DNA from: a virus
Reading direction: 5' to 3' (one strand)
Length of the DNA: 64,000 bases
IMG/VR virus record: IMGVR_UViG_3300033144_006256
Span: 20,645 to 84,644 of that record
Both the position numbers and the translations under genes were made by a program. Below, piece by piece: positions 4,885-29,234 of the stretch. Below the pieces are notes generated by a model. That model had not been told where the DNA came from, did no database searches, and saw only the letters and a program-made list of their open reading frames with translations. Each line of letters starts with the position of its first letter. The stretch's first letter is position 1.

Positions 4885-4913
4885 TTGACATTTTTAGTAG
4901 TATGAATTATAAT
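4885..4913 (+). promoter_or_regulatory. Consensus sigma70 promoter of non-coding element A
   Basis: TTGACA-N17-TATAAT. Confidence 0.85.
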
Positions 4914-5620
4914 ATAGTTAATGTATAGGGAAGATAGTTATAAAATTGATAACAGTTTTATAATCCGAGAAATCGGTGAAAACTTTTCTATACATTGCAT
5001 TTAACACCCGTAAGGGTGTTTTTTGCTTGTTGAATAATGCGAATTATGTTCAACAAAAATACAATTATGTTTTTTGATATAAAAAGTTTTCGCTATATCG
5101 GAGTAGGCGTACGAAACTGACGAGTGTTTAGCCAGTTAAGTTTTCTGGTGAATTAAAAAAACGATATTTCTTAATTACCTAGTGACTGGGTTAAGAAATA
5201 ATGATAAGCGATTAAAATTAAATAACAAATATTCTAATTAAAAGGATTTTATATCGCCACCAATGCTTCTGTGTGCTTGTTATGTAGCTACAGATAACCG
5301 TCACGAAAAGGGTGCTGGGGTGCGGATCCTCTAAATATCCGCCACTTCTTGAAGAATAAATTTTTAATATTCTAACGCACAAAATCTAAACATCCCTTTT
5401 TATATCAACATTCATATAAATATCCAATTTATTAATTCCATTTCAAAAGCGGGATAACTACAACAATTTTTGAAGAATAAATTATAAAGAAATAATATTA
5501 AACAAGTAAGAATAAAAAGAAATAAAAAAAAGAAAAAAACCGCTTGCGATAGCAAGCCACGAAGCGTAGCGAAGTGTGTATCGGAAATAAAAAATAAAAA
5601 ACAAAATATTAAATAATAGT
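4914..5620 (+). ncRNA. Large non-coding structured element, copy A (homolog of 28553-29205)
   Basis: No ORF; colinear motif conservation and compensatory stem changes versus copy B. Confidence 0.6.
5003..5024 (+). terminator. Intrinsic terminator/attenuator inside element A
   Basis: AACACCC-GTAA-GGGTGTT followed by a T run. Confidence 0.7.
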
Positions 5621-5649
5621 AATAATTTTAAAAAAAGATAATACAACAC

Positions 5650-5677
5650 TTGACATTTTTCCTATATCTGTTATAAT
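5650..5677 (+). promoter_or_regulatory. Sigma70-type early promoter
   Basis: TTGACA-N16-TATAAT with TGn extension. Confidence 0.8.
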
Positions 5678-5707
5678 AAAGATATAATAAATTAAAGGAA
5701 CAAAAAT

Positions 5708-6271
5708 ATGTCTAAAATAACAATATCTATAATAAAAAGTTTTATTAAAAAGAACTTTAAAAAAATATACATAAAAATAACAAGTAATTTTGATACTAAT
5801 GATGATTGCTTAATTGGGTTTAAAGATAGCGAATTTAATATTATGGCAGAAAGCATAAGATACCCTAAAAATACATTGGGGATAGAAGGTGCTTGGTTTA
5901 TAGGAAACAGCAGGGATTATTTTGAAAAATATGAAGATGATGAATTTACTGGATATACAGTTAGTAATTGTTGCGGTTCATTTATAATAGCAATTAAAAA
6001 ACCAACAGATAAAAATATATTAGATGATTATATACAATTAAAAACTAATTTTTATGGTAAAAAGTTTTCAATATACCAGTTATTCTTAAATGAATTTCGG
6101 GGGAAAGATAAAAAATTTAGTGAACTTACAGATATACCAGCAGATTTAATACCTTGCCTAGCAATATTTAATGATAATAAAATACAATTATGGTTTCATC
6201 TTAACAATGGGGCAACAGTAAAAGAATATTTAACAAATAAATTTTTAAATAAAGAATTTGGAAGGAAATAA
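5708..6271 (+). CDS. Hypothetical early protein
   Basis: First ORF after a strong promoter; AAAGGA RBS. Confidence 0.7.
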   Translation: MSKITISIIKSFIKKNFKKIYIKITSNFDTNDDCLIGFKDSEFNIMAESIRYPKNTLGIEGAWFIGNSRDYFEKYEDDEFTGYTVSNCCGSFIIAIKKPTDKNILDDYIQLKTNFYGKKFSIYQLFLNEFRGKDKKFSELTDIPADLIPCLAIFNDNKIQLWFHLNNGATVKEYLTNKFLNKEFGRK

Positions 6272-6275
6272 AAAT

Positions 6276-6626
6276 ATGAAATTTAATTTAAAAGAAGAAT
6301 ATAAGGAAGCAGATTTAACTAATATAGAAACACTTAAACAAATAGTTATAAATAAATTTAAAGAATATAAGTTGCCTTTAAACAAGATTATAAAGAAAGA
6401 TGATGGAATGTTTATTTATGGTAAATATTGCACAGAACATTGCAGAATAGTAAGAAAATTAGTTAAAGAAATATCTAATAATGAATATTTATACGAAAGA
6501 AAAAAGAAATATTATAATTGCAATTTTATTGGTACAGAAAATTTAGAAGAATTTCAAAATATACTTGAAATGATAATTAGTGAAAATTTAAGAAGAAAGG
6601 AATTTAAATTATATGAAAAAATATAA
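6276..6626 (+). CDS. Hypothetical protein
   Basis: ATG MKFNL at 6276 follows the previous stop. Confidence 0.6.
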   Translation: MKFNLKEEYKEADLTNIETLKQIVINKFKEYKLPLNKIIKKDDGMFIYGKYCTEHCRIVRKLVKEISNNEYLYERKKKYYNCNFIGTENLEEFQNILEMIISENLRRKEFKLYEKI

Positions 6627-7043
6627 AAAAACTATGAAAAAATTTGGTTTCATAATAGGTGTAAATGGTTTTCCAATTGATGTACAAGAAACTACGGAGA
6701 AAAAAGCTTTATTAAAATTTATAGATAAATATTATAAAAGGTTAGAAGATGAAAATTTTATATTTAGTTGTTTGGGGGAAATGGTTAAATAGATATAATA
6801 AATTAAGAAATTAAAAATATGATTGATACAAACATTATATTACAAAAAGAAATAAACAATGCACTTATTGAAAGTAATAAAATTACTGCTAAACTTCAAA
6901 CAAGTATATTAGAAGATATAGAAAAAATTAAAAAGCGATTAGATAAATTAGAAAAAAGGATAAAATAAAAATATGAATTATAAAGATGAATTAAAATTTC
7001 AAGAAATATTAAATAGATTATATGTTAAAGATGAAACAAAAAA

Positions 7044-7724
7044 ATGAAAAAATCTTGGAAATATTCATCACCAAATGGCAAGGAAGTTTGGAAAGAACTT
7101 GAAAAAATATCTAATGTTGGATATTCAAATTTCTTTACTGATTGGCTTGATTTAATATTAGCATCGCTTCTTTCTTTAACTGATAATTTAAAAAGGGATA
7201 ATATTAAAGAAAAACTACTTAATAATAAACTTGATGGCATATACGAAGAAAGATATTTGCAAATCGCCAATAAATATAAAAGCGAAAAAGAAATAGGAAA
7301 TCGTCCAATAGATTTTTTTGCAAATGCTTGGAACAAACTTTTTAAAGAAACATTAGAAAAACAAAAAGATATTTTAGGTGATATTTATCAGGGCAGAATA
7401 ACAATGGGAGAAGCAGGACAGTTTTTTACGCCAGAACATATCACAGAAGCGATGGCAGAAATGCAAATAACAGAAGATAATAAAAATATAATCGATCCGT
7501 GTTGCGGTAGCGGAAGATTTTTAATATCAGCTAATAAGAAGAATAAAAACTGTTATCTTAATGGTATTGATATTGATAATAGATGTGCCAAAATGTGTGC
7601 TATAAATATGTGGATATTTGATTGCAATGCAACAGTTAGACAAGGCAATCCTTTAACAAATGAATTTTACAATCAATGTGATATACGAAAAGGCTGGTTT
7701 ATTTATGAACGAATTTTAGCTTAA
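7044..7724 (+). CDS. Short N-6 DNA methylase-like protein (HsdM-like SAM-binding region)
   Basis: DILG.IY, GQFFTP, DPCCGSGRFL, GIDID; no NPPY/F catalytic motif. Confidence 0.75.
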   Translation: MKKSWKYSSPNGKEVWKELEKISNVGYSNFFTDWLDLILASLLSLTDNLKRDNIKEKLLNNKLDGIYEERYLQIANKYKSEKEIGNRPIDFFANAWNKLFKETLEKQKDILGDIYQGRITMGEAGQFFTPEHITEAMAEMQITEDNKNIIDPCCGSGRFLISANKKNKNCYLNGIDIDNRCAKMCAINMWIFDCNATVRQGNPLTNEFYNQCDIRKGWFIYERILA

Positions 7725-7742
7725 CAAAGCGGGAAGATAAAG

Positions 7743-7798
7743 TTATCCACTTTTATCCACCTTTGAACGCTTGACATTTATTCTACATCTGCTATAAT
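7743..7798 (+). promoter_or_regulatory. Two DnaA-box-like sites plus sigma70 promoter
   Basis: TTATCCACT 7743 and TTATCCACC 7753; TTGACA(7771)-N16-TATAAT(7793). Confidence 0.7.
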
Positions 7799-7923
7799 AA
7801 AAATAACAAAGAAAAGCGAACCCTATCGGGCAAGATATAATAAACACAAGTTACTAATTATATCTACAACGACGGGCTGGCAATTCTATAAATAATAATA
7901 TAATTTAGAAGGAGAACAAAAAA

Positions 7924-8142
7924 ATTAATTCAACAACAAAATATATAAAAGCAAAAATTAAAATAATAAAAAAAGATGTTGAAAATTATGATACAGAATC
8001 AGCACACGAGACAGAAGATAGTTTACGGGATGAAATATTAAAAAATATAGCTTCTGGTGAATATACAAAACAAGAATGTATAGATATGGCAAAAGAAGTA
8101 TTAAAAACTAATAAAATAAATTTTACTAGATGGTGTGCATAA
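7924..8142 (+). CDS. Small phage protein with apparent ATT start (not in ORF track)
   Basis: AGGAG RBS then ATT; 72-aa frame ...DTESAHETEDSLRDEILKNIA...FTRWCA. Confidence 0.6.
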   Translation: MNSTTKYIKAKIKIIKKDVENYDTESAHETEDSLRDEILKNIASGEYTKQECIDMAKEVLKTNKINFTRWCA

Positions 8143-8154
8143 TAAAATAAAAAT

Positions 8155-8421
8155 ATGGGAATACTAATTATAACAACAATAATAATATCACTGATAACAT
8201 TAATAGCTTGGATTGCTGATATGAATGTAAAATACATCTTAAAAGTAATTTTCTGGATAATATTAGCAATAGTATTTTTCAAGATAATATCATTAGGGAT
8301 TAAACAACACGAACAGAACGAATGTACAGCTTTACTAAAACAGAAAGAAAATATAGGCGAAATATGGTTTTCGGCAGATTGGCAAAAGAAAATGTGCTCA
8401 ACTTTCAACATAGAACTTTAA
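8155..8421 (+). CDS. Small membrane protein
   Basis: Two hydrophobic segments. Confidence 0.6.
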   Translation: MGILIITTIIISLITLIAWIADMNVKYILKVIFWIILAIVFFKIISLGIKQHEQNECTALLKQKENIGEIWFSADWQKKMCSTFNIEL

Positions 8422-8433
8422 AACATAATAAAT

Positions 8434-8547
8434 TTAGCTTGCTTGACTGCTACTCATTTACATAGGTTTTTTTAGCAAGTATTTAAGACATAGGTATTTG
8501 CAATTTTTGTTCTCCTATGTATCTGGAGTAGCAATTTAGCAAGCTAA
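8434..8547 (+). ncRNA. Long intergenic hairpin, family copy 1
   Basis: TTAGCTTGCT...AGCAAGCTAA closing stem, nested TGCTACTC/GAGTAGCA and TACATAGG/CCTATGTA. Confidence 0.55.
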
Positions 8548-8710
8548 CTAAAAGGAGGCAATGTGAAAACAAAACAAGAATATTGGTTAAATATCGCCAA
8601 CCAATTAAAAAACAGGGGCGATAACGAACAGAAAATAAAAAGAATAATTACAACTTGCAGTGATGATAAAACCGCTAATCAAGTGATAAACTATATAAGG
8701 AAATAATTTT

Positions 8711-9055
8711 ATGGATACAAAACAAGAATTCAAAAAATTTAAAAAGGAACATACATTAAAAGATATGCAGGAAGAAAAAAACCAACAAGATTATATTAAT
8801 AAAGATACTGCTGTTAATCTTGAAAAAGAAATCCTGCTAAAAGAAGAAAAAATTAGTGATATGCTATATCAAGGTGAAGCGAACATTAGGTTTTGTAATA
8901 TGCTAAGTGAAATGTTAAAAGAAGAAGAAAAAAAGATTTTCTGGTTTGCACGACCGAAATATAAAGTGATTTTAAAGATTTACAGAAAAGCGATTAAGGA
9001 TTGGAGAGAATTAAATATCAATTTAAAAATGGATATAGATAAAAAAGTAAAATAA
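8711..9055 (+). CDS. Hypothetical protein
   Basis: ATG ORF in the early operon. Confidence 0.6.
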   Translation: MDTKQEFKKFKKEHTLKDMQEEKNQQDYINKDTAVNLEKEILLKEEKISDMLYQGEANIRFCNMLSEMLKEEEKKIFWFARPKYKVILKIYRKAIKDWRELNINLKMDIDKKVK

Positions 9056-9059
9056 AAAT

Positions 9060-9644
9060 ATGAAACAAAAATTAAAATGCAAGTTTTGTAAAAAAACATT
9101 CATAGATATAATCGGACAGGATAAAAATAATGCAATTTGTGATAATTGTGTAAATGGAAATGTCAGAATAATAAAAACATCTTGGTTCAGCTTAGTAGTT
9201 TTGATACTTTTAACAGCATTATTGATAAGTTGTTTTATGCTAAAAGTTGTATTGTTTGAAAGAGAATTAAAATCTATAACGGTTATAAAGATTGAAAGGC
9301 AAGAAATAATTGAAGAACCAGAAATTTTACCAGCGATTCCGCAACCAAAAAAGATATTATCATTAAAAGCCAGCTACTATGTAAATAACTGCTGTGGTAA
9401 AGATGTTTGTATTACAGCTAATGGCGAAGTATATGACGATAGCCAGCTTACCGCAGCGTGCAATCTTGTGCCACTAGGAACGATTTTAAATGTTCAGCAT
9501 AAAGAAAAAGAAATCACAGTAAGGGTAAATGATAGAATTAGCAAGAAATATGGCAATAGCAGAATAGATTTGTCCAAAGGGGCATTTGCAAAATTAGGGA
9601 ATTTAGAAGCGGGGTTGTTAAATGTAAAAGTTTTAATAAACTAA
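9060..9644 (+). CDS. RlpA-like (DPBB) lytic transglycosylase-domain membrane protein
   Basis: ASYY, TANGE, TAA, VRVNDR, IDLS..AF; N-terminal Zn-ribbon-like Cys pairs and a TM helix. Confidence 0.85.
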   Translation: MKQKLKCKFCKKTFIDIIGQDKNNAICDNCVNGNVRIIKTSWFSLVVLILLTALLISCFMLKVVLFERELKSITVIKIERQEIIEEPEILPAIPQPKKILSLKASYYVNNCCGKDVCITANGEVYDDSQLTAACNLVPLGTILNVQHKEKEITVRVNDRISKKYGNSRIDLSKGAFAKLGNLEAGLLNVKVLIN

Positions 9645-9653
9645 ATTAAAATT

Positions 9654-10028
9654 ATGAAAGATTATAAAATTGAAACAAAACCTAGTTTTTGGGAAGTGAT
9701 ATTAAAAAGAGGTTGTTATTCTGACAAGGAAGAAAAACATTTATTTTTCAGAGCGAATGATGAGAATGAAGTTTGGAATTTTCTTTGTAGATATTTAGAA
9801 GATACTTTTGTAGATATATATAATTATGATGGTATTAGTCATATTGGTGCGATAAAAATTTACGGAGAAGATAAAAAAATTATAAAAAAGTTTGTTACAA
9901 ACAAATTAAAAAAATATTTGGTAGAAATGGAATATAGGGATGAAGATGAGATAGAATGGGATACTGATTATGGATATGCTTGGGCTTGTAAAATATTAAG
10001 ATTAAATGTAATAGAATTTAAAAAATAA
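9654..10028 (+). CDS. Hypothetical protein
   Basis: ATG ORF. Confidence 0.6.
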   Translation: MKDYKIETKPSFWEVILKRGCYSDKEEKHLFFRANDENEVWNFLCRYLEDTFVDIYNYDGISHIGAIKIYGEDKKIIKKFVTNKLKKYLVEMEYRDEDEIEWDTDYGYAWACKILRLNVIEFKK

Positions 10029-10049
10029 ATAAACTAAAAAGGAGCAATA

Positions 10050-10901
10050 ATGGATAACTTAAATATAGAAAAATTTAATCCCACTAAGGCAGAAGTAATT
10101 AAAATAACTGATAAATACAAGAATATACAGATTAAAGGGTTAGAAGATAAACAAGGGTATTTAATTGCAAAATCAGGCAAGCAAGAATTATCAGCATTAA
10201 GAACAGCTGTTAAAAGTTATGGAAAAGAACAGCGGGTAGAAGCATTAAAATATCAGAAAGCAGTTATAAAAGCAGAGAATGAACTTTTAAAAATTATAAA
10301 ACCGATTGAAGATAAAATTAAATTAAAAATAGATTTAATAGATGGTGAAAAAGAAAAAATAAGAATGCAAAAATATCTTCCAGATAGAAAAGCAAGACTA
10401 AAAGAAATTGATATTGAACTTGAAGATAGTGAATTATTAGAAATGGATAATACAGAATTTGAAAACTTTTTTAATGAAAAGAAAACTGAAATTCTTGCAG
10501 AAAAAGAAAGAAAATTACAAGAAGCAGAAGATAAACTTGTAGAAGAAAAAAAGAAAATTGAAATTGATAAAGGGATTGCAAAAGCAAAAGAAGAAGCAAG
10601 AAAAGAAGCTATGAAACAAGCAAAAATAAATATAGAAAATGCAAAAATACAAGCTGAAAAAGATAAAAAGAAAGCAGTTGAAGAAGCAAAGCAGAAAATA
10701 CTTGATGAACAACAAGAAAAAGAAAATGCAAAAATAGTAGAAGAAGAAAAGAAAAAACAAGAAGCAGAAGAATTACGAAAACAAGAAAAATATCAACTTT
10801 TTCTTGAAAGAAATGATTATAAAGATGATGGAAGTTTCAAAATAGAAACAGAAGATGGTTTAGTTGTCCTTTATAAGAAGATTGATGAAATAATAATTTA
10901 A
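10050..10901 (+). CDS. Coiled-coil protein (DUF1351-like) upstream of the recombinase
   Basis: E/K-rich coiled coil; typical position before an annealase gene. Confidence 0.5.
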   Translation: MDNLNIEKFNPTKAEVIKITDKYKNIQIKGLEDKQGYLIAKSGKQELSALRTAVKSYGKEQRVEALKYQKAVIKAENELLKIIKPIEDKIKLKIDLIDGEKEKIRMQKYLPDRKARLKEIDIELEDSELLEMDNTEFENFFNEKKTEILAEKERKLQEAEDKLVEEKKKIEIDKGIAKAKEEARKEAMKQAKINIENAKIQAEKDKKKAVEEAKQKILDEQQEKENAKIVEEEKKKQEAEELRKQEKYQLFLERNDYKDDGSFKIETEDGLVVLYKKIDEIII

Positions 10902-10918
10902 TAAAGAAAGGTAAAATT

Positions 10919-11536
10919 ATGGCAAATGAAATTAAAAAACTACAAATAACAGAAGAAATAAGAAAACAGTTAAATGCACCGCTTCCAGCAGAAGCAATAT
11001 CAAAGCATCCAACTAAAACATTTCTAAGCACAATAAAATCTATTTTTATCATAGAACGATTAAACAGTGTATTCAAATTAGGCGGGTGGCATTTATCAAC
11101 AGAAATTATTAAAGAAACACCTGATTATGTTTTGGTAAAAGGTGAATTAAAAATACACGATTATGATGTGAAGATAACACCACAATTTGGAGGGCATAAT
11201 ACAACAGGTAAAGGAACAGAAATTGCAGATGGTTATAAAAGTGCTGTTACTGATTGCCTTAGTAAATGTGCTAGTTACCTTGAAATAGGCATAGATGTTT
11301 TTAAGGGGAAATCAACACCAGCACAAAGTTATAACAGTTATAGCAAACCAGCTTATACACCAAAACTAGCACAACAACAAACAACAGAACAACAGATGAA
11401 TAATCAAGACAAAAAAGATTTAACCTGCACAGAATGTTTAGTTGAAATCTCAGTTGCTGAATATGAATTTTCTAAGAAAAAATTTGGAAAAGCACTTTGC
11501 AGAAACTGTCAAGGCATAGCAAGGGGTAATGAATAA
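10919..11536 (+). CDS. Rad52/Sak-like single-strand annealing protein
   Basis: IERLN.VF..GGW and KSAVTD.L.KCAS.L.IG.D; C-terminal CxxC...CxxC. Confidence 0.8.
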   Translation: MANEIKKLQITEEIRKQLNAPLPAEAISKHPTKTFLSTIKSIFIIERLNSVFKLGGWHLSTEIIKETPDYVLVKGELKIHDYDVKITPQFGGHNTTGKGTEIADGYKSAVTDCLSKCASYLEIGIDVFKGKSTPAQSYNSYSKPAYTPKLAQQQTTEQQMNNQDKKDLTCTECLVEISVAEYEFSKKKFGKALCRNCQGIARGNE

Positions 11537-12037
11537 TGAATATTTGGGTTACCACTGATACACATCTAAATCATACTAAATTGATTGAATATGGGCGACC
11601 AGAAAATTTTGAAGATAAGATTAAAAAAGGGTTGGTTAATAATATTAAAAAAGATGATTTGTTAATCCATTTAGGTGATGTTTGTATAGGGGATGATAAG
11701 AAAAATAATAATTGGTTTAAAAAAAAGATTGAAGTGCAAAACTATTCTTGTATTAGGAACCCACGATAATAAAACGATCAATTTTTATTTATCTAATGGC
11801 TGGGATTTTGCCTGTGAAAGATTTGATTTCAAAATGTTTGGTAAACGAATTGCCTTTACACATATGCCGATTGCTTGGGATGGATATTTTGATATAAATC
11901 TACACGGGCATTTCCATAATACAGATTATAGAAGGAACGAACCAGACTTTAATAAAGTTATAAGTGGTTATAATAAACTTATATCATTAGAATTTACTAA
12001 TTATCAACCATTAAATCTTCGTAAAATAATAAAATGA
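11536..12037 (+). pseudogene. Calcineurin-like metallophosphoesterase, frameshifted at an A8 run
   Basis: DTH and HLGD in the first frame; GTHD, THMP and HGHFH in the second; shift at A8 11719-11726. Confidence 0.75.
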
Positions 12038-12591: not shown

Positions 12592-12592
12592 T

Positions 12593-12808: not shown

Positions 12809-12823
12809 AAAGGAAAAATAAAA

Positions 12824-14848: not shown

Positions 14849-14986
14849 TTGATATTTTTCAGAAATACGGTATAATAATAGTAAGCTTTGCGACATATTA
14901 AAACTATAATAGGTTATAAAAAAAATACCAAATATATATATTTTACAAGAAGCCACTTAGTTGCAAAGCTTAATAGGTGGTTTTTT
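14849..14986 (+). promoter_or_regulatory. Promoter plus attenuator/pseudoknot leader
   Basis: TTGATA-N16-TATAAT; 14882-14894 is complementary to the loop (14960-14972) of terminator 14950-14986. Confidence 0.65.
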
Positions 14987-15037
14987 GTTTAAGCTACAAG
15001 ATAAAATCTTGATTAAAAATAGAAAAGTAAAAAAACA

Positions 15038-15370
15038 ATGAATAAAATAAAACTTGATAAAAAAGAAAAGGCATTTAAAAAAAGATTATGTAAAATATCT
15101 GGCATTTTTAGCGATGAATATTCAATTTTTACAGAATTTAATACATTAAAAAATATTTCTTCTAATGATATAATGCATTTGTCATCTGCTGGATTTTTTT
15201 GCTTAGCTGGCGAAGATATGATTAGTCCTTTTAACAATATAGTAGAGGATAATGTTGAAAATTTATTTATAAAATGGATTTTTAGTGGTGATTTAGTAGC
15301 AAGAGATAAAATAGTTGAAATTATAAATAATACAATAATAGAAAAAAAAGGAAAATCATATTTTGCCTAA
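15038..15370 (+). CDS. Hypothetical protein
   Basis: ATG ORF after the leader. Confidence 0.55.
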   Translation: MNKIKLDKKEKAFKKRLCKISGIFSDEYSIFTEFNTLKNISSNDIMHLSSAGFFCLAGEDMISPFNNIVEDNVENLFIKWIFSGDLVARDKIVEIINNTIIEKKGKSYFA

Positions 15371-21389: not shown

Positions 21390-21428
21390 GCAAGCACTCT
21401 CTCCCAATAATAAATTAAATTAAATAAT

Positions 21429-21677: not shown

Positions 21678-21718
21678 TTTCATACGACGGTATGTCTGGT
21701 GCAAACCCAGAGTTCGCT
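21665..21718 (+). ncRNA. Minimal tRNA-like element (acceptor stem plus T arm)
   Basis: AGCGAAT/GTTCGCT stem; CATAC-GACG-GTATG hairpin; TCTGG-TGCAAAC-CCAGA T-arm. Confidence 0.4.
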
Positions 21719-22191: not shown

Positions 22192-23022
22192 ATGAAAAAT
22201 AAAATTATACAAGGTGAAGCATTAGAAGAATTAAAAAAACTTCCAGATGAAAGTGTCAATATGTGTATTACGAGTCCACCTTATTGGACTTTAAGAGATT
22301 ACGGAGTTGAAAGGCAACTAGGGTTAGAGCCAAATTTTAATATTTATATTACTAATCTCTGTAATATTTTTGATGAGGTTAAAAGAGTATTAAAAAAAGA
22401 AGGAACTTGTTGGGTTATTTTAGGAGATACATATATGACACAAAAAAGAAAATTGCCTGATAAATGCCTCTGTCAAATTCCATCCCGCTTTGCAATAGAA
22501 ATGACAAATAGAGGTTGGATATTAAGAAATGAATTGATATGGCACAAATCAAACTGTATGTCCTCATCAGTAAAAGATAGATTTACAGTAGATTTTGAAA
22601 AGATATTTTTCTTTGTTAAGGGTAAAAAATATTATTTTGAAACGCAATATGAACCGATGAATGATAAAAGTAAAGAAAGATATAAATATAACTTTACTGG
22701 GAATAAAAATAATGATGGTAAACTTACATTGCAAGAACCAAAGGGGAAATCAATACAATCAAATAAAGGTAGAAATAAACGCTGTGTTTGGAAAATTACA
22801 ACTAAATCATATAAAGAAGCACACTTTGCAACATACCCAGAAAAACTTATAGAGACACCTATATTAGTTGGTTGTCCAGAAAATGGGATAATTCTTGACC
22901 CATTTTTCGGTGCAGGAACAACAGGAGTAGCTTGTAAAAACCTTAATCGTAGATTTATAGGTATAGAAAAAGATAAAGAATATTTTAAAATAGCAGAAGC
23001 GAGAATAAAATCAACACCATAA
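22192..23022 (+). CDS. DNA methyltransferase, N4C/N6A beta class
   Basis: [27 protein letters not shown]. Confidence 0.9.
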
Positions 23023-23075
23023 CCGCTGTTTTAAAAGAGTTTAACCTTAAATAAATAACAAGAAAGGATAAAAAT

Positions 23076-23546
23076 ATGAATATGGATAAAAAAGAAATTC
23101 AAAAAAGAGTTTTACAAAATGGGGAACCATTAGACTTAGATAAATTTACTTGGGATAAAGATACTAAAACATTTTCAAGTTTAGAAGATAATTTAGTACT
23201 TGATTTTAATGGTATAGATTACTGTGTTTTTTCTGCTGGCTCTGACTGTGTTTTCAAAACTGGCTCTGGTTGTATCTTCAAAACTGGCTCTAACTGTGTT
23301 TTTGATACTGGCTCTGGCTGTGTTTTTTCTACTAGCTCTTACTGTATTTTTTCTACTGGTTTTAACTGTGCAGTAGTTAGAAGAGATGTTTATGGAGTTA
23401 TAGAATTAAAAGAAAATCAGAAAATTAAATTAAATGGATGGAATATTAAAGGTTATAAAATCCTAGATGAGGAAGAAAAATCTCTATCTGGCAAAAAAGT
23501 AAAAGTAGAACTAGACGGTAAAAGTTATACAGCTACTATCGATTAA
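23076..23546 (+). CDS. Octapeptide-repeat protein
   Basis: About six C(V/I)FxTGSx repeats. Confidence 0.7.
   Translation: MNMDKKEIQKRVLQNGEPLDLDKFTWDKDTKTFSSLEDNLVLDFNGIDYCVFSAGSDCVFKTGSGCIFKTGSNCVFDTGSGCVFSTSSYCIFSTGFNCAVVRRDVYGVIELKENQKIKLNGWNIKGYKILDEEEKSLSGKKVKVELDGKSYTATID
23220..23370 (+). repeat. 24-nt coding tandem repeat
   Basis: Units such as TCTGACTGTGTTTTCAAAACTGGC and TCTAACTGTGTTTTTGATACTGGC. Confidence 0.8.
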
Positions 23547-23809
23547 TAAATTAAATAAATATGGATAAGAAATTAATATACAATTATAAAGAATTATACG
23601 ACCCATTAGATGATATTACTTTTAGTTCAGAACTGCTAATCAGAAAATTAAATAAAAGAGAATACCTCAATAATGATGAAAGAGAATTATTGATAGAAGC
23701 AATTGAAGTGTGCGTTAATCTTTTAAAATGTTAGATTATATTATTGCAATTGGGTTATTAACTTTATTTTTTGGAAGTATTTTAGCTGTAATTTTAGGGG
23801 GGGGGTAAA

Positions 23810-23995
23810 ATGGATAAGCAAGAAATGAATATAAAAATAATGACAGATTATCGCTTAGCATTAGAAGAAATATTTAGAAATGTTAGAAATTTAGACGAAG
23901 ATAGATTAGTAGAATTAGATATTAATAGTGCCTTTTTAAAAGAAGAAGAAATACAATTAGTTTGGAAAAGTATTTTCAAAAAAAGAAGAAGATAA
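23810..23995 (+). CDS. Hypothetical protein
   Basis: ATG ORF after a G-rich RBS. Confidence 0.5.
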   Translation: MDKQEMNIKIMTDYRLALEEIFRNVRNLDEDRLVELDINSAFLKEEEIQLVWKSIFKKRRR

Positions 23996-23997
23996 TA

Positions 23998-24073
23998 AAA
24001 GGAGGCATAAGTTGCCTCCTTGACTTTTTCATAAAAAAAGCGTATAATTACAACATAAACTATAACGGTTATA
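23998..24073 (+). promoter_or_regulatory. Hairpin overlapping a promoter, followed by a palindromic operator-like site
   Basis: AAGGAGGCA/TGCCTCCTT hairpin; TTGACT(24020)-N17-TATAAT(24043); TATAACGGTTATA 24061-24073. Confidence 0.65.
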
Positions 24074-24076
24074 ACT

Positions 24077-24943
24077 ATGAAAATCAATCAAATAAAAGTT
24101 TGTAAAAGGTTTAGAAAAGATCTTGGTGACTTAGAAGAATTAAAAAAATCAATTAAAGAAATAGGGCTTTTACAACCAATAGTTGTTGATGAAAATAATA
24201 ATTTAATAGCTGGACAAAGAAGATTACAAGCATTTAAAGAATTAAGTATCACTGATATAGATGTGAATATAATAAAAATAGATAGTAGTTTAAAAGGTGA
24301 ATATGATGAAAATGTTATAAGGAAACAATTTACACCGACAGAGGGGGTTAAAATATGGGAAGCAATGAAAAGTTATCAGGGGAAAAATCAATATACACAA
24401 GAGGATGTGTCCAATTTGGACACAAGCAAAAAAAGAGATAGGGCAGCTAAAGCAACAAAGATAGGAAGAACAAATCTTTCAAAGGCAAAACAAGTTATAG
24501 AATATGGGGATAAGGATATAATAAAAGAAATGGATAAAACCGAGAATATTAGTGGAGCATACAGTAAAATTAAAACAGCAAAAACACTAGCAGATATTGA
24601 ACAACAAAAAAAAGATATAGCAAGTGGCAAAATAAAACTTCCAGAAGGTGTATTTGAAAATATAGTTGTAGATCCGCCTTGGGATTACAAATCAGAATAT
24701 AATGCAGAAACACGAAGATCAGCTAATAAATATCCACCAATGACGTTAGAAGAAATAGAAAATATTAAATTACCATTAGCGGATGATTGTATATTATGGT
24801 TTTGGACAACACAAGCATTTATCTTTGAAGCTAAAAGAATACTTGATAATTGGGGTTTTGATTATAAAGGAATGTTAATTTGGGATAAAGGGCAAATGGG
24901 TCAAGGTTATTGGCTAAGAATGCAATGTGAGTTCTGTGATTAG
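24077..24943 (+). CDS. ParB/Srx N-domain fused to an MT-A70 methyltransferase, C-terminally truncated
   Basis: GLLQPIVV...LIAGQRRL; DPPW, WTT, WGF.Y, G.GYWLR.Q.EFC, then an abrupt stop. Confidence 0.8.
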   Translation: MKINQIKVCKRFRKDLGDLEELKKSIKEIGLLQPIVVDENNNLIAGQRRLQAFKELSITDIDVNIIKIDSSLKGEYDENVIRKQFTPTEGVKIWEAMKSYQGKNQYTQEDVSNLDTSKKRDRAAKATKIGRTNLSKAKQVIEYGDKDIIKEMDKTENISGAYSKIKTAKTLADIEQQKKDIASGKIKLPEGVFENIVVDPPWDYKSEYNAETRRSANKYPPMTLEEIENIKLPLADDCILWFWTTQAFIFEAKRILDNWGFDYKGMLIWDKGQMGQGYWLRMQCEFCD

Positions 24944-25253
24944 ATTTTTTAAACAAGGGGTAAATGCATCTGATTTATTTAATGGTAATTATTTTAATAC
25001 AAGAAGATTAGCTTTAAATAAACCAGCACCAACAATTACAAAAACTAAAGCATTATTACATCCGACAGAAGACAGATGGCTTACAATAGAAGAATGTAAA
25101 GCTATATCAACTTTCCCAAAAGATTTCAAATTTATTGGCTCATATAATAACCAATGGGCAAGAATAAGGAATGCTGTTATGCCAAAATTTATGGAAGCGA
25201 TTGCGTTACATATTAAAAAAGAAATATTAGAAAAATACTATGAAAACAATTAA
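24927..25253 (+). pseudogene. C-terminal fragment of a C5-cytosine DNA methyltransferase
   Basis: P.PTIT, HP.E.R.LT.EEC..I..FP..F.F.G, NAV.P (motifs IX-X only). Confidence 0.75.
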
Positions 25254-25422
25254 CCTTATATGCCAACAATGTGGCACAAAACTATTAAAACAACCACAGA
25301 ACATAAATAAGAGGCAACAACCTTTTTCTACTTGGTATAATGGCTTTTGTGATGTATGTGGTAAAGAAAAAACAGTGACTGAAAACCGTGATTTTGGCTA
25401 TTTAAAAGAAAAAAATGATTAA
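25240..25422 (+). CDS. Small Zn-ribbon protein
   Basis: CQQC...CDVCG...TE.RDFG. Confidence 0.6.
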   Translation: MKTINLICQQCGTKLLKQPQNINKRQQPFSTWYNGFCDVCGKEKTVTENRDFGYLKEKND

Positions 25423-25570
25423 CTATAAAAACAAATATCCATTATCTACCCTTAATACTTAATAAAATAACAGATATAGAAATAATGGGTAATAATCATT
25501 CAACAGAGCAAGGAATACAATATAAGCATATTAGAAACGCAATTAATAATATAATAGAAAGTTAAAAAAT

Positions 25571-25675
25571 ATGAAAACTAAAAAACCTTGTCCAAGTTCA
25601 AAAATCCGTTCTAAAGGTAAAGGACGTGGGTTAGGTATAGGAAAAGGTAAGGGACCGATAGGAAGAAGAAAATAA
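25571..25675 (+). CDS. 34-aa Gly/Lys/Arg-rich basic peptide (not in ORF track)
   Basis: MKTKKPCPSSKIRSKGKGRGLGIGKGKGPIGRRK. Confidence 0.55.
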   Translation: MKTKKPCPSSKIRSKGKGRGLGIGKGKGPIGRRK

Positions 25676-25730
25676 CTTATAACCTGTTATAACTTTAATA
25701 AATTAAAAAAAACATATAGTAAAGGATAAA

Positions 25731-25886
25731 ATGCCTACTGTATCAGAAGAAAAGAAAAAAGAATATTTAGCACTTATAAGAAGATTATTAGTTATGAATC
25801 CAAATATAACTGTTTTAGGTATTCAATCAGCATTAGAAAATAGTAAAAATAGTTTTAATCGATTTTTTTATAAAAATATGTTATAA
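25731..25886 (+). pseudogene. Orphaned 5' stub of the putative small terminase gene
   Basis: MPTVSEEKKKEYLALIRRLLVMNPNITVLGIQSALENSK matches the N-terminus of 26657-27148. Confidence 0.8.
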
Positions 25887-25951
25887 TATATTTATAGGGA
25901 CGAGAAATATTTTTTATGCCTGCCAATGGCTCGTCCCTGAGGTAGGCTTTT
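25879..25951 (+). promoter_or_regulatory. Extended -10 promoter plus attenuator/pseudoknot leader
   Basis: TGtTATAAT; AGGGACGAG (25896) pairs with CTCGTCCCT in the loop of GCCTGCC/GGTAGGC-TTTT. Confidence 0.65.
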
Positions 25952-25963
25952 AAGTATATTATT

Positions 25964-26652
25964 ATGCCATCAGGAGTTTATAAAAGAAGTGAATTAGAAA
26001 AAAATAGATTATATAATAATCTAAAATATAGTATTAGGGTTGGTATGACTGGCAAAAAGCATTCAGAGCATTCAAAAAAGAAGATGAGTAATTCTAAATT
26101 AGGTAAGCATTATTCGACAAGGACTGAGTTTAAAAAAGGTAACCCACCGTGGAATAAAGGCAAAAAATTATCAGATGAATATAGAAAAAAATTAAGTGAA
26201 TCACATAAGGGGTTGCAATCTTATTGGAAAGGCAGAAAAAGAGGAGCGATGTCAGATGAATGGAAAAGAAAAATATCAGAAGCTAATAGGGGGGGGCTAA
26301 AGGGAACGCTTGGAAAGGTGGTATAACAAAAAAACATTTTGCAGAAAGAAATAATGTTGAAATTAAAATTTGGAAGGCTAATATTTTTAAAAAATATAAT
26401 TGGTCTTGTAGAAAATGTGGTAAAATAGGTGGTAGGTTGCAAGCCCACCATATATATAATTTTTCTAGTCACATTAATTTTAGATCTAAGATTGATAATG
26501 GTATATTACTATGCAACGAATGCCATAAAGAATTTCATAAAATATATAAAAGGGTAAATAATAATATAGAGCAAATAGATATTTTTATAAATGGTTATAA
26601 TACTATAAAACAGTTTTTAAGGGATAATTATAAAGAAATATTTTGTGATTAA
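25964..26652 (+). pseudogene. NUMOD3-repeat HNH homing endonuclease, frameshifted at a G8 run
   Basis: KHSE..K.KMS and PWNKGK repeats; the second frame continues WKGGIT...CRKCG...AHH...NG.LLC.ECH..FH; G8 at 26289-26296. Confidence 0.8.
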
Positions 26653-26656
26653 AAAT

Positions 26657-27148
26657 ATGCCAGCATATAGTGAAGAGAAAAAAAATCAATTTATGGAGTA
26701 TATTAGAAGGCTATTAGTTATGAGTCCTAATATTTCTATTTTATCAATACAAGAATCTCTTGAAAAAAGTAAAGGGATAAGGCTAGATAAAGATTATATA
26801 CATAAACTAAGAAACAAAATATTTGCAGAAAGAGCGAATAGGTATAATTATTATACTATAAAAAAATTGTTGCCAGAATATAGTGACGAAATAGAAATAA
26901 TTAAAAGTAGATTGTGGAGCATATTAAATAACAAAGATGCTGAAGATAGAGATAAAATTAGGGCTCTAAGTGAAATAAGAAATTCAAGTAAAGATTTACT
27001 AAACGCTATGGCTGATGCTGGCGTATTTACAAGGGAGATAGGAAAACTTGATACTGGTATGGCTGAAATAGTAAAGATGATTAAAGAATACTACCCTAAA
27101 AAAGAAATAAAGCCAGAAGATGTGCCAGGTGAAGCACCGCAGGAATAG
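26657..27148 (+). CDS. Putative terminase small subunit
   Basis: Helical, with HTH-like N-terminus; lies in the region upstream of terL. The call is positional. Confidence 0.5.
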   Translation: MPAYSEEKKNQFMEYIRRLLVMSPNISILSIQESLEKSKGIRLDKDYIHKLRNKIFAERANRYNYYTIKKLLPEYSDEIEIIKSRLWSILNNKDAEDRDKIRALSEIRNSSKDLLNAMADAGVFTREIGKLDTGMAEIVKMIKEYYPKKEIKPEDVPGEAPQE

Positions 27149-27504
27149 TGTTAGAAGCCCCAAAATTGCGTTCTAAGGGGTTTTAAAGTAAAAAGTAATT
27201 ATAATATACATTATGGAAAAAGAAACATTTGATGCAATAAGAATAATAATATCTTGTTTTGGCTTATCTGTCGCAATAATAGGATTTTTTTATGGAAGTA
27301 ATCACAGGATATACAGGGTTTATGGTTTTTAATGCTTTGGCTATATTCGCTTGGAGTATTTATTTAAGAAAAATTTATATTGAAAATAAGTAGCTTATCT
27401 AAGCCAAAAGTGCTAATTCTATGGGGGGTTCATTTTACATAATAGTTAAAATATGAAACAAGAAGATTGGCAAAAAATATAAGGTTTATTAGAAAGGCAA
27501 AAAA

Positions 27505-27741
27505 ATGAAAAAACATAATCCATATAAACTAACTATAGAAAAAATAGAAAACGGCTTTTTGCTAACCCATAATGAACAACTTGACGATGATTGGGTAAAA
27601 GAACGCAAGGAAGCAATCATAGAAGATGATGATGAAGAAAAAGAAATAGTAGCAGTGCTTCAACAAGTAGCTGAATATTTTGGTATTTATAATAGCAAAC
27701 ATAAAGAAAGAAATTTAGAGATAGGATTTAAAAAAAATTGA
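27505..27741 (+). CDS. Hypothetical protein
   Basis: AGAAAGG RBS; IEKIENGF motif. Confidence 0.6.
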   Translation: MKKHNPYKLTIEKIENGFLLTHNEQLDDDWVKERKEAIIEDDDEEKEIVAVLQQVAEYFGIYNSKHKERNLEIGFKKN

Positions 27742-27818
27742 TAAAGTATTTGATATAGTATATTGTTTTAGAATGATTAAAATTATTTGGTGAATATTGG
27801 GATAGTATGTGGTATTAA

Positions 27819-27891
27819 GCAGATGTAGTTTAACTGTTAAAACTATCATTCCAACAAAATGATTTTAGCGGTACAACTCCGTTCATCTGCA
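27819..27891 (+). tRNA. Degenerate tRNA-like RNA (Gly-like body, atypical loops)
   Basis: GCAGATG/CATCTGC acceptor, GTTT/AAAC D stem, ATCATT/AATGAT anticodon stem, AGCGG/CCGTT T stem with TACAACT loop. Confidence 0.55.
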
Positions 27892-27924
27892 CAGGTTTTT
27901 TAACATTAAATAAAGGAGGGAATA

Positions 27925-28419
27925 ATGACAATAATACCAGTAGTAATTATTGTATTAAAGAAATGTAACCATTTTGTATTAGTAGTTAATTCAACTAAAC
28001 TCAATGGAAAAGCATTCCCAGGTGGTAAAATTAAATTTGGTGAAACAATAAGAGAAGCAACAATGCGTGAAGCGAAAGAAGAATTAGGTATTGATGTTAA
28101 GGTTGAAAGAATAATCGGGTATGGTGAAATGATAACAGCTGGATATGCAGGTGATAGAAAATATTTATCATATGCAGAACTAAACGCACTGCCAGAAACA
28201 CAGAAAAGAAATTTTATTAATCCGTGTAGTAAAAAACATTATTTATTCTATACAGTCCTTTGTTCAAAGAAATTTAAGAATAGCAGAGTAGTATTGAATG
28301 AAGAAGCCACAGAATGTTTTTGGGTCACAATTAATGAGTTAGAAGAATGTGGGTTAAATGGAATTTGGGAACAGCCGATAGGACACATTAAACAATCAAT
28401 GTTTAAAAATCCATATTAG
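27925..28419 (+). CDS. NUDIX hydrolase
   Basis: PGG...GET..EA.MRE.KEELG Nudix box. Confidence 0.9.
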   Translation: MTIIPVVIIVLKKCNHFVLVVNSTKLNGKAFPGGKIKFGETIREATMREAKEELGIDVKVERIIGYGEMITAGYAGDRKYLSYAELNALPETQKRNFINPCSKKHYLFYTVLCSKKFKNSRVVLNEEATECFWVTINELEECGLNGIWEQPIGHIKQSMFKNPY

Positions 28420-28496
28420 TTCTTTATCAAATAAGAAATATGGTATAACTGTTAAAAGAATACAAAGATTTTGTTTATAATACTTCCAATATTCTT

Positions 28497-28538
28497 AAAA
28501 GGGGGCGGAATGCTAATGATGCAATATCCGCCCCAAAA
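28497..28538. terminator. Terminator-like GC hairpin where NUDIX and element B transcription converge
   Basis: GGGGCGGA/TCCGCCCC flanked by A runs. Confidence 0.55.
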
Positions 28539-28552
28539 TACTAATATTTCCA

Positions 28553-29205
28553 AGTATTATTTAAGGTTTTGTTATTAGTTTTATACTTCCGATACAAACT
28601 TCGCTACGCTCGTTGCTTTTGTATAAAACACCCTTCGCTACGCTACGGGGTTTTCTATCAAAAGCGGTTTTCTTTTTTCTATAATCTTTTCTAAACTTTT
28701 TCTTTATTGTTTATATTTATCTGCTTAGTGTTGGCATAGTTATCCCATAGCGATATTTAAAAAAATATAACCTTATAATGCCTTCTGTGGAGTTTTTCTA
28801 AAGACTAAGTTACTATCCTTAAACAAATGTTACAAAAAAAATGTAAATTTGGCGGCCTCTTTTCCTATATTACCATTGGATAGCATCCCATTTCGGAAAG
28901 GTCGTGCTTTTGCACACATAGAGTATTGATTTTGCTGATGCAACTATCACGCTTTAGAATTAAGGAGGAGTGGTTACCTTCAAGTATGCTCTCCCCACAG
29001 GATTAACAAACTATATCATATGTAGTAGGGTGATTAGATAAAAGCACATAAGCACACTTACTTTATCTTATTCGTTCCCTACATTTTACAAGCAAAAAAC
29101 ACCCAATAAAGGGTGTCTGATGCAATGAGATATAATATTTTACCAATTTCTTGGCATACAAATTTGTCGATAAAATTGTAATTTATATTATATTCCATTA
29201 ACCAT
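28553..29205 (-). ncRNA. Large non-coding structured element, copy B (homolog of 4914-5620)
   Basis: Same ordered motifs as copy A, on the minus strand. Confidence 0.6.
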
Positions 29206-29234
29206 ATTATAATTTACTTTTAAAAAATTGTCAA
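29206..29234 (-). promoter_or_regulatory. Consensus sigma70 promoter of element B, abutting the terL ATG
   Basis: TTGACA-N17-TATAAT on the minus strand. Confidence 0.85.

Follow-up and report, generated by a model that had tools for sequence, protein, structure and literature searches.

What fills the two largest intergenic gaps in the uncultured phage genome IMGVR_UViG_3300033144_006256 (84.6 kb), and whether their contents are two copies of one element, is the question raised by this locus. The gaps (899 and 815 nt) hold two intervals, A and B, in opposite orientations, described in the initial annotation as diverged, non-coding ~700-nt elements; both lie in the 64,000-nt stretch of the record analyzed here (the window), and feature coordinates are given in Table 1. 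Nearly all genes of the phage are on the plus strand. Gap A is a hub of divergent early promoters, in which the promoter of small RNA A stands back to back with the leftward promoter at 4847–4820, and inverted repeat I1 joins the rightward early operon's promoter to the region of the 4847 promoter, at 87% complementarity. The rightward early operon occupies the plus strand for ~23 kb (5708–28419). Gap B is the early/late border, where the terminase gene, divergent from small RNA B, is the first gene of the virion module, with a Mu-like portal gene next. Of the nine perfect consensus promoters, none lies outside the early region, the tnpB cassettes, and A and B.

Alignment of A with the reverse complement of B (blastn and MAFFT) gave significant similarity in two blocks only. 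The 5' block (4883–5035 vs 29236–29083) is 72% alike over 158 nt (E = 9e-20). The 3' block (5484–5618 vs 28720–28555, blastn E = 1e-13 to 1e-14) is about 80–85% alike in its core and was stretched by MAFFT to 5451 vs 28746 (5451–5618 vs 28746–28555). The order and orientation of the blocks are identical in both copies, with 340–420 nt between them. The middles (5036–5483 vs 29082–28721) gave alignment z-scores against dinucleotide shuffles of only 1.5 (global) and 0.8 (local), and on either strand they folded no better than shuffles. Motifs previously listed as shared by the middles, including TGTGTGC and CCGCCA, are within chance, as the colinear chain of exact words containing them had a z of about 0 and a wrong-orientation control scored equally high. 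The A middle contains a 21-nt inverted repeat (5066–5086/5396–5416, I2) flanking 309 nt. A and B each consist of two shared modules with unrelated sequence between them and are not one ~700-nt element; the earlier description held for the ends but not for the middle.

The first module begins in each copy with a perfect TTGACA-N17-TATAAT promoter, found where it had been reported, and folding confirmed the multi-stem RNA that had been proposed to follow it. RNA A has a 14-bp closing stem (P1), a 12-bp hairpin (P2), a third hairpin (P3, CCGA-GAAA-TCGG) and a terminator (AACACCC-GUAA-GGGUGUU, then a U-run), with a minimum free energy of –41.3 kcal/mol (z = –7.47; 0/200 shuffles folded as well). 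RNA B has the same architecture, with P3 as CCAA-GAAA-TTGG and ACACCC-UUUAUU-GGGUGU followed by a U-run as terminator (–31.8 kcal/mol, z = –5.77; 0/200 shuffles). The common fold is a three-way junction plus terminator, with the GAAA loop kept on P3. The terminator motif ACACCC..GGGTGTTTTTTGCTTGT is present in both copies as claimed; these +105 terminators are among the strongest of the genome and, read in reverse, are not terminators. In at least 7 base pairs both partners differ between A and B while pairing is kept, 3 of them in P2/P3 (RNAalifold) and 4 to 7 of 14 in P1 depending on the placement of a one-base offset (helix lists), in a sample of two paralogues from one genome whose AT-rich sequence makes A-U/U-A swaps easy. 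Since no homologue of the small RNAs was found in any collection searched, the covariation rests on this single pair; the stems differ in sequence yet remain paired, which argues that the RNA fold is under selection. Covariance model R1 had exactly two matches in the window, copies A and B, and no Rfam family matched. By sequence and predicted fold, RNAs A and B are paralogues that form a new orphan small-RNA family. The undescribed large ncRNA of the initial annotation thus survives as a structured RNA with compensatory changes and no Rfam match, but one of ~105 nt with a strong terminator, not ~700 nt. Module 1 is a self-contained small-RNA gene with a host-type (sigma-70) promoter, of the type that drives the early genes of this phage. 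No trans target of the RNA stood out in the phage genome.

The second module, the 3' block, contains in A, in order, GGGATAACTA, a decayed promoter look-alike (5457–5487, matching the promoters of RNAs A and B at 80–88%), then an A-rich tract and a hairpin, followed by the box AGCGTAGCGAAGTGTGTATCGGAA and by TTAAATAATA. The 3'-block landmarks reported earlier for both copies were recovered: GGGATAACTA at 5451 and 28746–28737, the A-rich tract ending in AAAACCGCTT, the box AGCGTAGCGAAGT.TGTATCGGAA, and ACAAAA..TTAAATAATA. The block has no sense-strand terminator; on its opposite strand, a hairpin followed by a T-run has the form of an intrinsic terminator. The genome has few canonical terminators, and they concentrate in A and B: the A minus-strand terminator (5557–5542 plus T7) is one of only two sites genome-wide that passed a strict filter, and the B plus-strand hairpin is one of four plus-strand terminator-like sites under a relaxed filter. 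The genome scan found no plus-strand intrinsic terminator inside the early operon, and the B hairpin and T-run, placed exactly at the end of that operon and shortly ahead of the terminase gene, are likely its terminator. No minus-strand promoter or gene was seen upstream of the A terminator, which is conserved as well as that of B despite the absence of evident upstream transcription. On the opposite strand the hairpin and T-run are preceded by a 23-nt box (TTCCGATACA.ACTTCGCTACGCT) that is absent from the rest of the genome; the window has only three occurrences of CTTCGCTACGC, one in A and two in B, vs 0.09 expected. In B the box is in a 34-nt tandem duplication (28594–28627 and 28628–28661). 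The core of the block is conserved and richer in GC, with CGWAG words recurring in it, and its flanks have 7–12% GC. Conservation is higher in the box than in the hairpin, a pattern not required of a plain terminator. Beyond the B block, the GC-rich hairpin at 28500–28540 may serve as a back-stop, terminating minus-strand transcripts that leave B.

Table 1. Features of intervals A and B and their surroundings (window coordinates).
Feature	Position	Strand	Basis or remark
Promoter, leftward 3-gene operon (DNA methylase first)	4820–4847	–	consensus
Promoter of small RNA A, TTGACA-N17-TATAAT	4885–4913	+	12/12 consensus positions
Small RNA A, ~105 nt	4920–5026	+	predicted from fold, terminator scan, covariance model R1 (130 bits)
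Middle of A	5031–5450		not homologous to B middle; fold z –1.5, –0.8 (two strands)
3' block of A	5451–5618		MAFFT alignment; blastn
Intrinsic terminator in A 3' block	5525–5557	–	GCTTGC-TATC-GCAAGC, GG, T7-C-T8; terminator scan
Promoter, rightward early operon	5650–5677	+	consensus; 32 nt past A 3' block
GC-rich hairpin GGGGCGGA..TCCGCCCC, then CTTTT	28500–28540	–	inverted repeat I2; sequence read
3' block of B	28555–28746		MAFFT alignment, direct repeat D1, motif count
Hairpin + T-run (GG-TTTT-C-TTTTTT) in B 3' block	28613–28680	+	fold, scan matches, sequence read
Middle of B	28747–29087		not homologous to A middle; fold z –0.3, –1.5 (two strands)
Small RNA B, ~105 nt	29095–29200	–	predicted from fold, terminator scan, covariance model R1 (108.7 bits)
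Promoter of small RNA B, TTGACA-N17-TATAAT	29206–29234	–	perfect consensus
Large terminase gene	29235–30704	+	PHROG terminase large subunit, E = 1.6e-24

We favor, with confidence a little above even, the reading that A and B are small-RNA genes combined with opposite-strand terminator modules, the RNA acting by its fold and with a local effect at B. That A and B are instead twin replication origins, as the initial annotation had suggested, we consider unlikely. The 3' block would then be the origin, R-loop primed (in the style of ColE1 or T4 ori(uvsY)) or initiator-bound (in the style of SPP1 oriL/oriR); primers would be read-through or local transcripts, and how much transcription reaches the block would depend on the small RNA and its terminator. 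The conserved core between very AT-rich tracts in both copies would suit an origin, as would a box unique to A and B and duplicated in B, strong host-type promoters directed toward the block, and facing terminators shielding both zones from outside transcription. The replication genes said to be bracketed were not recognized: the A–B interval contains recombination, DNA-methylation and homing-endonuclease genes, and no replication initiator, polymerase, primase or helicase was recognized among ~35 early ORFs scanned. An origin using host factors only would fit this; however, the record is ~80% complete, so replication genes may sit in the missing part. ColE1 RNA II has no terminator between promoter and origin, and RNA I is antisense to it. 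A and B resemble ColE1 in that a host-type promoter precedes an A-rich tract and hairpin by several hundred nt, and in the ~105-nt multi-stem 5' RNA. Unlike in ColE1, the small RNA has the sense orientation, an antisense promoter was not seen, and a strong terminator ~450 nt ahead of the 3' block interrupts the transcript, contrary to the uninterrupted preprimer of an RNA II-like origin. The A-rich tract and hairpin read more simply as a textbook other-strand terminator than as a priming site, and in B they lie at the expected operon-terminator site. Neither A nor B has a DnaA-box cluster, and GC skew is dictated by the coding strand, without a turn at either, and weighs neither for nor against an origin.

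A single ~700-nt ncRNA per copy, starting at the promoter, passing a leaky or regulated +105 terminator and covering the whole 3' block, appears quite improbable. The B product would end at the 28540–28500 hairpin, and this hairpin with its short T-run would have no use unless minus-strand transcripts reached it; the constant order and orientation of the two blocks and the purine-rich sense strand of A and B, like the genome's coding strands, also point this way. A single 700-nt ncRNA is nevertheless not supported, because the +105 terminator is strong and the middle, unrelated between copies, gives no fold signal; the 3' block, moreover, would leave it without a sense-strand terminator.

Equally hard to sustain is a module on the opposite strand resembling lambda PR'-tR', with the 3' block as promoter-proximal box plus terminator, which a phage antiterminator or modified polymerase would read through to switch on the operon beyond, crossing the small-RNA gene antisense. 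The strand would be plus for the terminase and minus for the leftward methylase operon. Both 3' blocks do lie upstream of an operon start in the same relative orientation, the 23-nt box directly precedes the hairpin and T-run on that strand, and the small-RNA terminators would not stop polymerase in the reverse direction. B has a 10/12 promoter-like site (28452–28481, plus strand) ~130 nt before the hairpin, but matches at this stringency are as common in shuffled sequence. A has no matching minus-strand promoter, no Q-like or N-like protein was identified, and the leftward operon already has its own consensus promoter.

Conserved ends around an unrelated interior are the usual look of a mobile element, and invading elements abound in this genome (tnpB cassettes, HNH and NUMOD endonucleases); relatives of the terminase at 60% identity also carry different upstream DNA. 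We see little prospect, however, that the blocks mark the two ends of a cassette, mobile or duplicated, whose cargo varies, and are kept for mobility with the RNA fold incidental. Neither interval resembles the tnpB cassettes or their RNA regions, terminal inverted repeats and an internal transposase or endonuclease are absent, and the terminase start is not duplicated at B; the compensatory stem changes argue for selection on the RNA itself.

The claim that neither copy codes for protein was borne out, with no sense ORF of at least 60 aa in A or B. Leaderless micro-protein genes are very improbable: aligned ATGs 7 nt past each –10 box, positioned as a leaderless mRNA start would be, open ORFs of 27 aa (A) and 39 aa (B) inside the RNAs, but these are not conserved at the protein level: their differences by codon position number 11/9/12, with 18 non-synonymous vs 2 synonymous codon differences, their stops and lengths differ, and the invariant CATTGCAT is in different reading frames.

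Lambda OOP, P22 Sar and P1/P7 C4 are phage small RNAs, each made from a promoter of its own and ended by an intrinsic terminator. RNAs A and B are likewise predicted to be short terminated transcripts from host-type promoters in regulatory intergenic regions, and the RNA B gene is antisense to the leader of the neighboring operon; those RNAs are single-copy, with simpler hairpins and a defined antisense target, unlike the two diverged three-way-junction copies without Rfam similarity found here. The phi29 pRNA is a three-way-junction RNA driven by an early promoter, with loops that pair between molecules. A and B share the junction and the early-type promoter, and B adjoins terminase and portal genes, but complementarity is lacking between their loops (GAUA-type and GAAA), this phage is of an unrelated type, and Rfam gave no match. 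HK022 putL and putR are two copies of a structured antiterminator RNA (~70 nt, two stem-loops), each just past a strong early promoter, within early mRNAs and directed into the genes served (PMC9378689). A and B are similarly two diverged, structured copies in opposite orientations just downstream of strong early promoters; unlike put, each folds as a three-way junction of 105 nt and ends in a terminator of its own, B is not directed into any genes, and the early operon lacks the plus-strand intrinsic terminators that an antiterminator would have to overcome. The Tn916 insulator is described as a convergent, insulating intrinsic terminator at a module border (PMC11658703). The A and B terminators are comparably placed to keep one module's transcription out of the next, and differ from that insulator by the extra conserved 23-nt box, the two inverted copies, and the lack of evident upstream transcription at one of them.

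Under the favored reading of a small-RNA gene with an opposite-strand terminator, units A and B would derive from a compact cassette, an RNA gene with a facing terminator, that was duplicated in inverted orientation, the inter-module space having since been filled or replaced independently. Our best guess is that the small RNA would be abundant, produced by host RNA polymerase directly after infection, and it may act through its fold, binding protein or nucleic acid via the conserved P3 hairpin and flanking single strands. The B unit may have a second, local effect on the terminase leader. A cis-antisense effect would concern B only; at A, the leftward operon's own promoter lies beyond the RNA gene. 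The terminase start, conserved in relatives, abuts with its start codon (29235) the –35 box of the RNA B promoter. The B middle is the only space for a plus-strand promoter of the terminase operon, and no promoter matching at least 10/12 positions was found on that strand from the B terminator up to the terminase gene. A terminase mRNA starting more than ~35 nt upstream of the ATG would necessarily be antisense to small RNA B. Through this overlap, and because the RNA B promoter covers the terminase start, early firing would restrain premature late-gene expression, and the facing terminator of B would keep early transcripts out of the late operon.

Local alignment of the two copies, A (4885-5620, plus strand) and B (29234-28553, minus strand), yielded only two significant blocks. 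The first, the 5' module, consists of the promoter, an RNA of ~105 nt and its terminator (72% over 158 nt, E 9e-20). The second (5484-5618 in A, 28720-28555 in B; E 1e-13 to 1e-14) was lengthened by MAFFT to 5451 and 28746, so that the block starts at the shared GGGATAACTA, and is referred to as the 3' module; in B it holds a 34-nt tandem duplication. The interiors between the modules are unrelated, with alignment z-scores of 1.5 (global) and 0.8 (local) against dinucleotide shuffles. The initial annotation had described two ~700-nt elements sharing an ordered series of motifs. The promoters, the multi-stem RNA, the terminator and the 3' motifs were all present at the positions it assigned to them, so that two shared modules stand, but homology along the full 700 nt does not: the best colinear exact-word chain, including the middle motifs TGTGTGC and CCGCCA, had a z-score of ~0, and a wrong-orientation control scored equally high. 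Similarly, a long structured RNA of 700 nt, as had been proposed, is unlikely, as neither strand of the interiors folds better than its shuffles (z -0.3 to -1.5). Descent of the interiors from decayed coding sequence was rejected; tblastx against the genome detected nothing outside the A and B blocks. A 21-nt inverted repeat (5066-5086/5396-5416, 86% complementary) flanks 309 nt of the A interior, and is possibly an insertion in A that could account for the difference between the interiors. The start of the A 3' module contains a decayed look-alike of the small-RNA promoter (5457-5487, ACAACA..TATAAA, 80-88% over 25 nt), which hints at an older tandem duplication.

Both 5' modules carry a perfect (12/12) TTGACA-N17-TATAAT promoter and, ~105 nt past the likely start, a U-run preceded by a hairpin of 7 bp in A and of 8 bp in B. 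The fold common to both RNAs comprises a 14-bp closing stem (P1), two hairpins (P2 and P3, the latter with a GAAA cap) and the terminator. Minimum free energies were -41.3 (A) and -31.8 kcal/mol (B), with z-scores of -7.47 and -5.77, and 0/200 shuffles folded as well. RNAalifold identified three P2/P3 pairs kept despite changes on both sides, including CCGA/TCGG in A versus CCAA/TTGG in B. The outer four pairs of the closing stem are the same in both copies, and 4 to 7 of the remaining pairs are changed on both sides and still paired, the count varying with the placing of the single A-C mismatch of B. The covariation sought by the initial annotation thus amounts to at least seven pairs changed on both sides, counted from two sequences. 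Conservation within the RNA falls on the GAAA-capped P3 hairpin and the A-rich flank 3' of it, on the base of P1 and on the GCAU linker.

An ATG 7 nt past each -10 box starts an ORF of 27 or 39 amino acids. These ORFs show no protein conservation: differences are distributed 11/9/12 by codon position, differing codons are non-synonymous in 18 cases versus synonymous in 2, and the invariant CATTGCAT is read in a different frame in each copy's ORF. The earlier statement that neither copy codes for protein therefore holds. Each 5' module has its own promoter, a predicted non-coding transcript of <300 nt and an intrinsic terminator, as a stand-alone small-RNA gene should, and its structure is kept through compensatory change, as seen in two sequences. 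At the sequence level, these results demonstrate two paralogous promoter-to-terminator small-RNA genes with a predicted fold conserved via compensation. Trans-targets in the phage genome were sought by short-word blastn, which returned borderline matches only (best, 21 nt at 90%, E 0.1, 47838-47858), and trivial pairing of the U-run with the A-tract dominated the duplex energies calculated for the small RNA with the 3' block.

A covariance model built from the A/B pair (R1) recovered these two copies in the window and no others. Rfam 15 gave only tRNA over the whole window at the gathering threshold, and only tRNA plus a 20-bit chance match to IS009 at the A and B loci at E<=1. The proposed undescribed large ncRNA family is thus supported as undescribed, having a compensated fold and no Rfam 15 match, but at ~105 nt it is not large. 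Searches for homologues of the two blocks were uniformly negative: A and B had no blastn match in 50,697 phage records; exact-motif scans of IMG/VR gave none, or chance matches that failed the profile or covariance model check; JGI metagenomes gave no homologue of either block; 16 matches in GTDB genomes were chance matches (0/16 confirmed by covariance model); and none was found either by nhmmer with the two blocks, run on 83 loci surrounding distant relatives of the terminase, or by R1, run on the complete records of the five best relatives in IMG/VR. Terminase relatives reach at most 42% identity in IMG/VR; among isolates, the best match is to Bacteroides phages (28%), and one terminase-relative protein (P0002) is 87% identical. 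Two metagenome loci with 60% identical terminases (L084 and L085) have different DNA upstream, with no small-RNA promoter. Upstream of the L084 terminase lies a ~290-nt non-coding stretch (L084:20-345) that is G+C-richer and bears no relation to A or B. An inverted repeat, perfect over 21 nt (GTATGCACTTTGATAGAGAGA and its complement), marks its two ends; the stretch may represent a MITE-like insertion, or the repeat a long closing stem. Elsewhere in the window, a separate promoter-leader-terminator unit (14849-14992) precedes a gene at 15038, and a 13-nt stem in it (TAAGCTTTGCGAC/GTTGCAAAGCTTA) competes with the terminator hairpin, giving it an attenuator-like look; R1 matched this unit weakly (11.5 bits, E 3.1).

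On the strand opposite to the RNA gene, both 3' modules place a G+C-containing hairpin directly before a T-run. In A, the plus strand has an A-rich tract ending AAAACCGCTT followed by GCTTGC-GATA-GCAAGC; read on the minus strand, the same site is GCTTGC-TATC-GCAAGC-GG-TTTTTTT-C-TTTTTTTT, a 6-bp stem (4 GC) followed by GG and T7. In B, the plus strand forms a 55-nt hairpin, a consequence of the tandem duplication, followed by GG-TTTT-C-TTTTTT. The 3' module thus reads as a predicted intrinsic terminator for transcription opposing the RNA gene. Canonical intrinsic terminators are very rare genome-wide (window -20644 to 64000). A whole-genome scan with a strict filter (stem >=6, >=4 GC pairs, >=6 T in 8) returned two sites in 84.6 kb, both in A (the small-RNA terminator and the minus-strand one of the 3' module), and a relaxed filter returned four sites on the plus, gene-bearing strand, two of them being the RNA A terminator and the B block. 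The B block lies at the exact point where the long plus-strand early operon must end, ahead of the late genes. At A, no minus-strand promoter or gene was found upstream of the minus-strand terminator. A conserved 23-nt box, TTCCGATACA.ACTTCGCTACGCT, precedes the hairpin on the terminator's strand; its core is present once in A and twice in B, a total of three occurrences in the window versus 0.09 expected. Because the box is more conserved than the hairpin stem, selection at the 3' block may cover more than termination. On the plus strand of B (28452-28494), a 10/12 promoter-like site (TTAAAA-N18-TATAAT) is followed directly by ACTTCCAATA, a partial copy of the conserved box ACTTCCGATA that lies 103 nt further (28579-28599).

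The record, of which the window covers bases 20645-84644, is linear, 84.6 kb long, ~80% complete and 30% G+C. Almost all of its genes are on the plus strand; one operon of three genes is on the minus strand. A and B fill the two largest intergenic gaps of the genome and occupy its two regulatory hubs.

Positions of the paired modules and of the genes that border them (window coordinates)
Feature	Position	Strand	Remarks
Minus-strand operon	3463-4808	-	three genes; the first encodes an N6/N4 DNA methylase
A gap			899 nt, between the minus-strand operon and the first rightward gene at 5708
5' module of A	4883-5035	+	
3' module of A	5451-5618	+	
NUDIX gene	27925-28419		left border of the B gap
B gap			815 nt, between the NUDIX gene and the large terminase gene
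3' module of B	28746-28555	-	
5' module of B	29236-29083	-	
Large terminase gene	29235-30704		right border of the B gap; a Mu-like portal gene is next

Nine perfect (12/12) consensus promoters were found genome-wide: those of the two small RNAs, five of early genes and two of tnpB. The 23 kb between the copies encodes a Rad52-like annealing protein, a PD-(D/E)XK nuclease, at least five DNA methyltransferases, HNH and NUMOD endonucleases, a DPBB protein and numerous unknown ORFs; none of its products was recognised as a polymerase, primase, helicase or initiator. Of the earlier label "early/replication region", "early" is fair, but "replication" lacks a recognised replication gene in the 23 kb. 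The palindrome TATAAC-N1-2-GTTATA occurs at 10 sites (window 1778-60958, all scored on the plus strand) versus 0.05 expected, with 0/10 in A or B.

The reading of A and B as a pair of replication origins using host factors only is disfavoured, and we consider it very improbable. Transcription by the host RNA polymerase would begin at the consensus promoters, with read-through metered by the 105-nt RNA and its terminator, an R-loop would prime DNA synthesis at the box with its flanking AT-rich and polypurine tracts, and the facing terminators would keep other transcription out of the zone. No replication initiator or polymerase was recognised in the sequenced part of this phage (record ~80% complete). 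ColE1-type RNA-primed origins depend on a ~500-nt preprimer transcript that runs without interruption from the promoter to the origin, a persistent RNA-DNA hybrid, RNase H cleavage and autonomous replication, and an antisense RNA I gene overlaps the preprimer 5' end. Here strong intrinsic terminators at ~+105 interrupt any such preprimer in both copies, and neither small-RNA gene has a promoter of >=10/12 directed into it from the opposite strand. GC skew everywhere tracks the coding strand and is uninformative about origins, and DnaA-box-like words form no cluster in A or B. In the window, 39 such words were observed versus 23 expected, and two tandem near-perfect ones (TTATCCACT, TTATCCACC; 7743-7761) lie 10 nt upstream of a consensus promoter at 7771. 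An iteron origin at 23221-23370 was rejected, as the repeat is protein-coding: within an ORF (23076-23546), a 24-nt unit present ~6 times encodes 8-residue repeats C-V/I-F-x-T-G-S-x and is not obviously iterons.

Among known systems, the nearest case of two diverged copies after two early promoters is put of phage HK022, two-stem RNAs of ~70 nt within early mRNA that are directed into genes whose terminators they suppress (PMC9378689). In contrast to these mRNA parts, the RNAs described here form a three-way junction with their own terminator, B points at no genes on the minus strand, and in the early operon there are no plus-strand intrinsic terminators to overcome; a put-type antiterminator was rejected on these grounds. 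A phi29-type pRNA, which forms rings through two mutually complementary loops, does not fit either, since the P2 loop (GAUA in A, larger in B) is not complementary to the GAAA loop of P3. A riboswitch or attenuator was rejected because the junction lacks conservation, nothing pairs in competition with the terminator, and there is no conserved gene downstream. Derivation from the tnpB (IS200-IS605) cassette of the same genome was dismissed, with similarity to tnpB or omega-RNA regions at the promoter level only and no copy of the terminase start (a duplicated target-gene start) near B or at its far end. An invertible segment was also dismissed, the repeats being too diverged.

We judge the structural description, paralogous small-RNA genes each with a conserved opposite-strand terminator block at two regulatory hubs, to be somewhat better than an even prospect; considerably less confidence attaches to a timing role of RNA B on the terminase. 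At B, the -35 box of the RNA abuts the terminase ATG, the terminase gene has no Shine-Dalgarno sequence (window 29201-29240), and a perfect plus-strand TATAAT (29208-29213) overlaps the RNA B -10 box on the other strand. This arrangement suggests that polymerase binding at 29201-29240 would be mutually exclusive between the strands. A late promoter upstream of 29200 would force a cis-antisense overlap of RNA B with the terminase leader. A late-promoter motif search among intergenic regions returned only Shine-Dalgarno-like common words and located no late promoter. Since the stretch from the B terminator to the terminase gene contains no promoter of >=10/12 on the plus strand, the late transcript probably starts upstream and runs antisense across the RNA B gene, or competes with the RNA B promoter. 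Under the proposed mechanism, host polymerase would make the small RNA early and abundantly, the RNA would act via its fold, and at B antisense crossing or promoter competition would postpone expression of the terminase for as long as the early promoter is active.

Taken from sequence, the orphan small-RNA family, with its two copies and companion terminator block, appears real. It is of a kind already known, that of phage small RNAs and module-border terminators; the family itself is new, having no Rfam match and no homologue found. As it comprises two copies in one genome, its roles are candidate roles. The layout is a compact example of a phage walling off its two main regulatory regions, with an inward-firing RNA gene, a terminator facing that gene, and a terminase start beneath the RNA's promoter. 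If expressed, this would be a new structured phage RNA family transcribed from two very strong early promoters. The small RNA would then rank with the earliest and most plentiful products that the phage makes in the cell, and would be a candidate tool of host takeover or of the timing of the switch from early to late expression.
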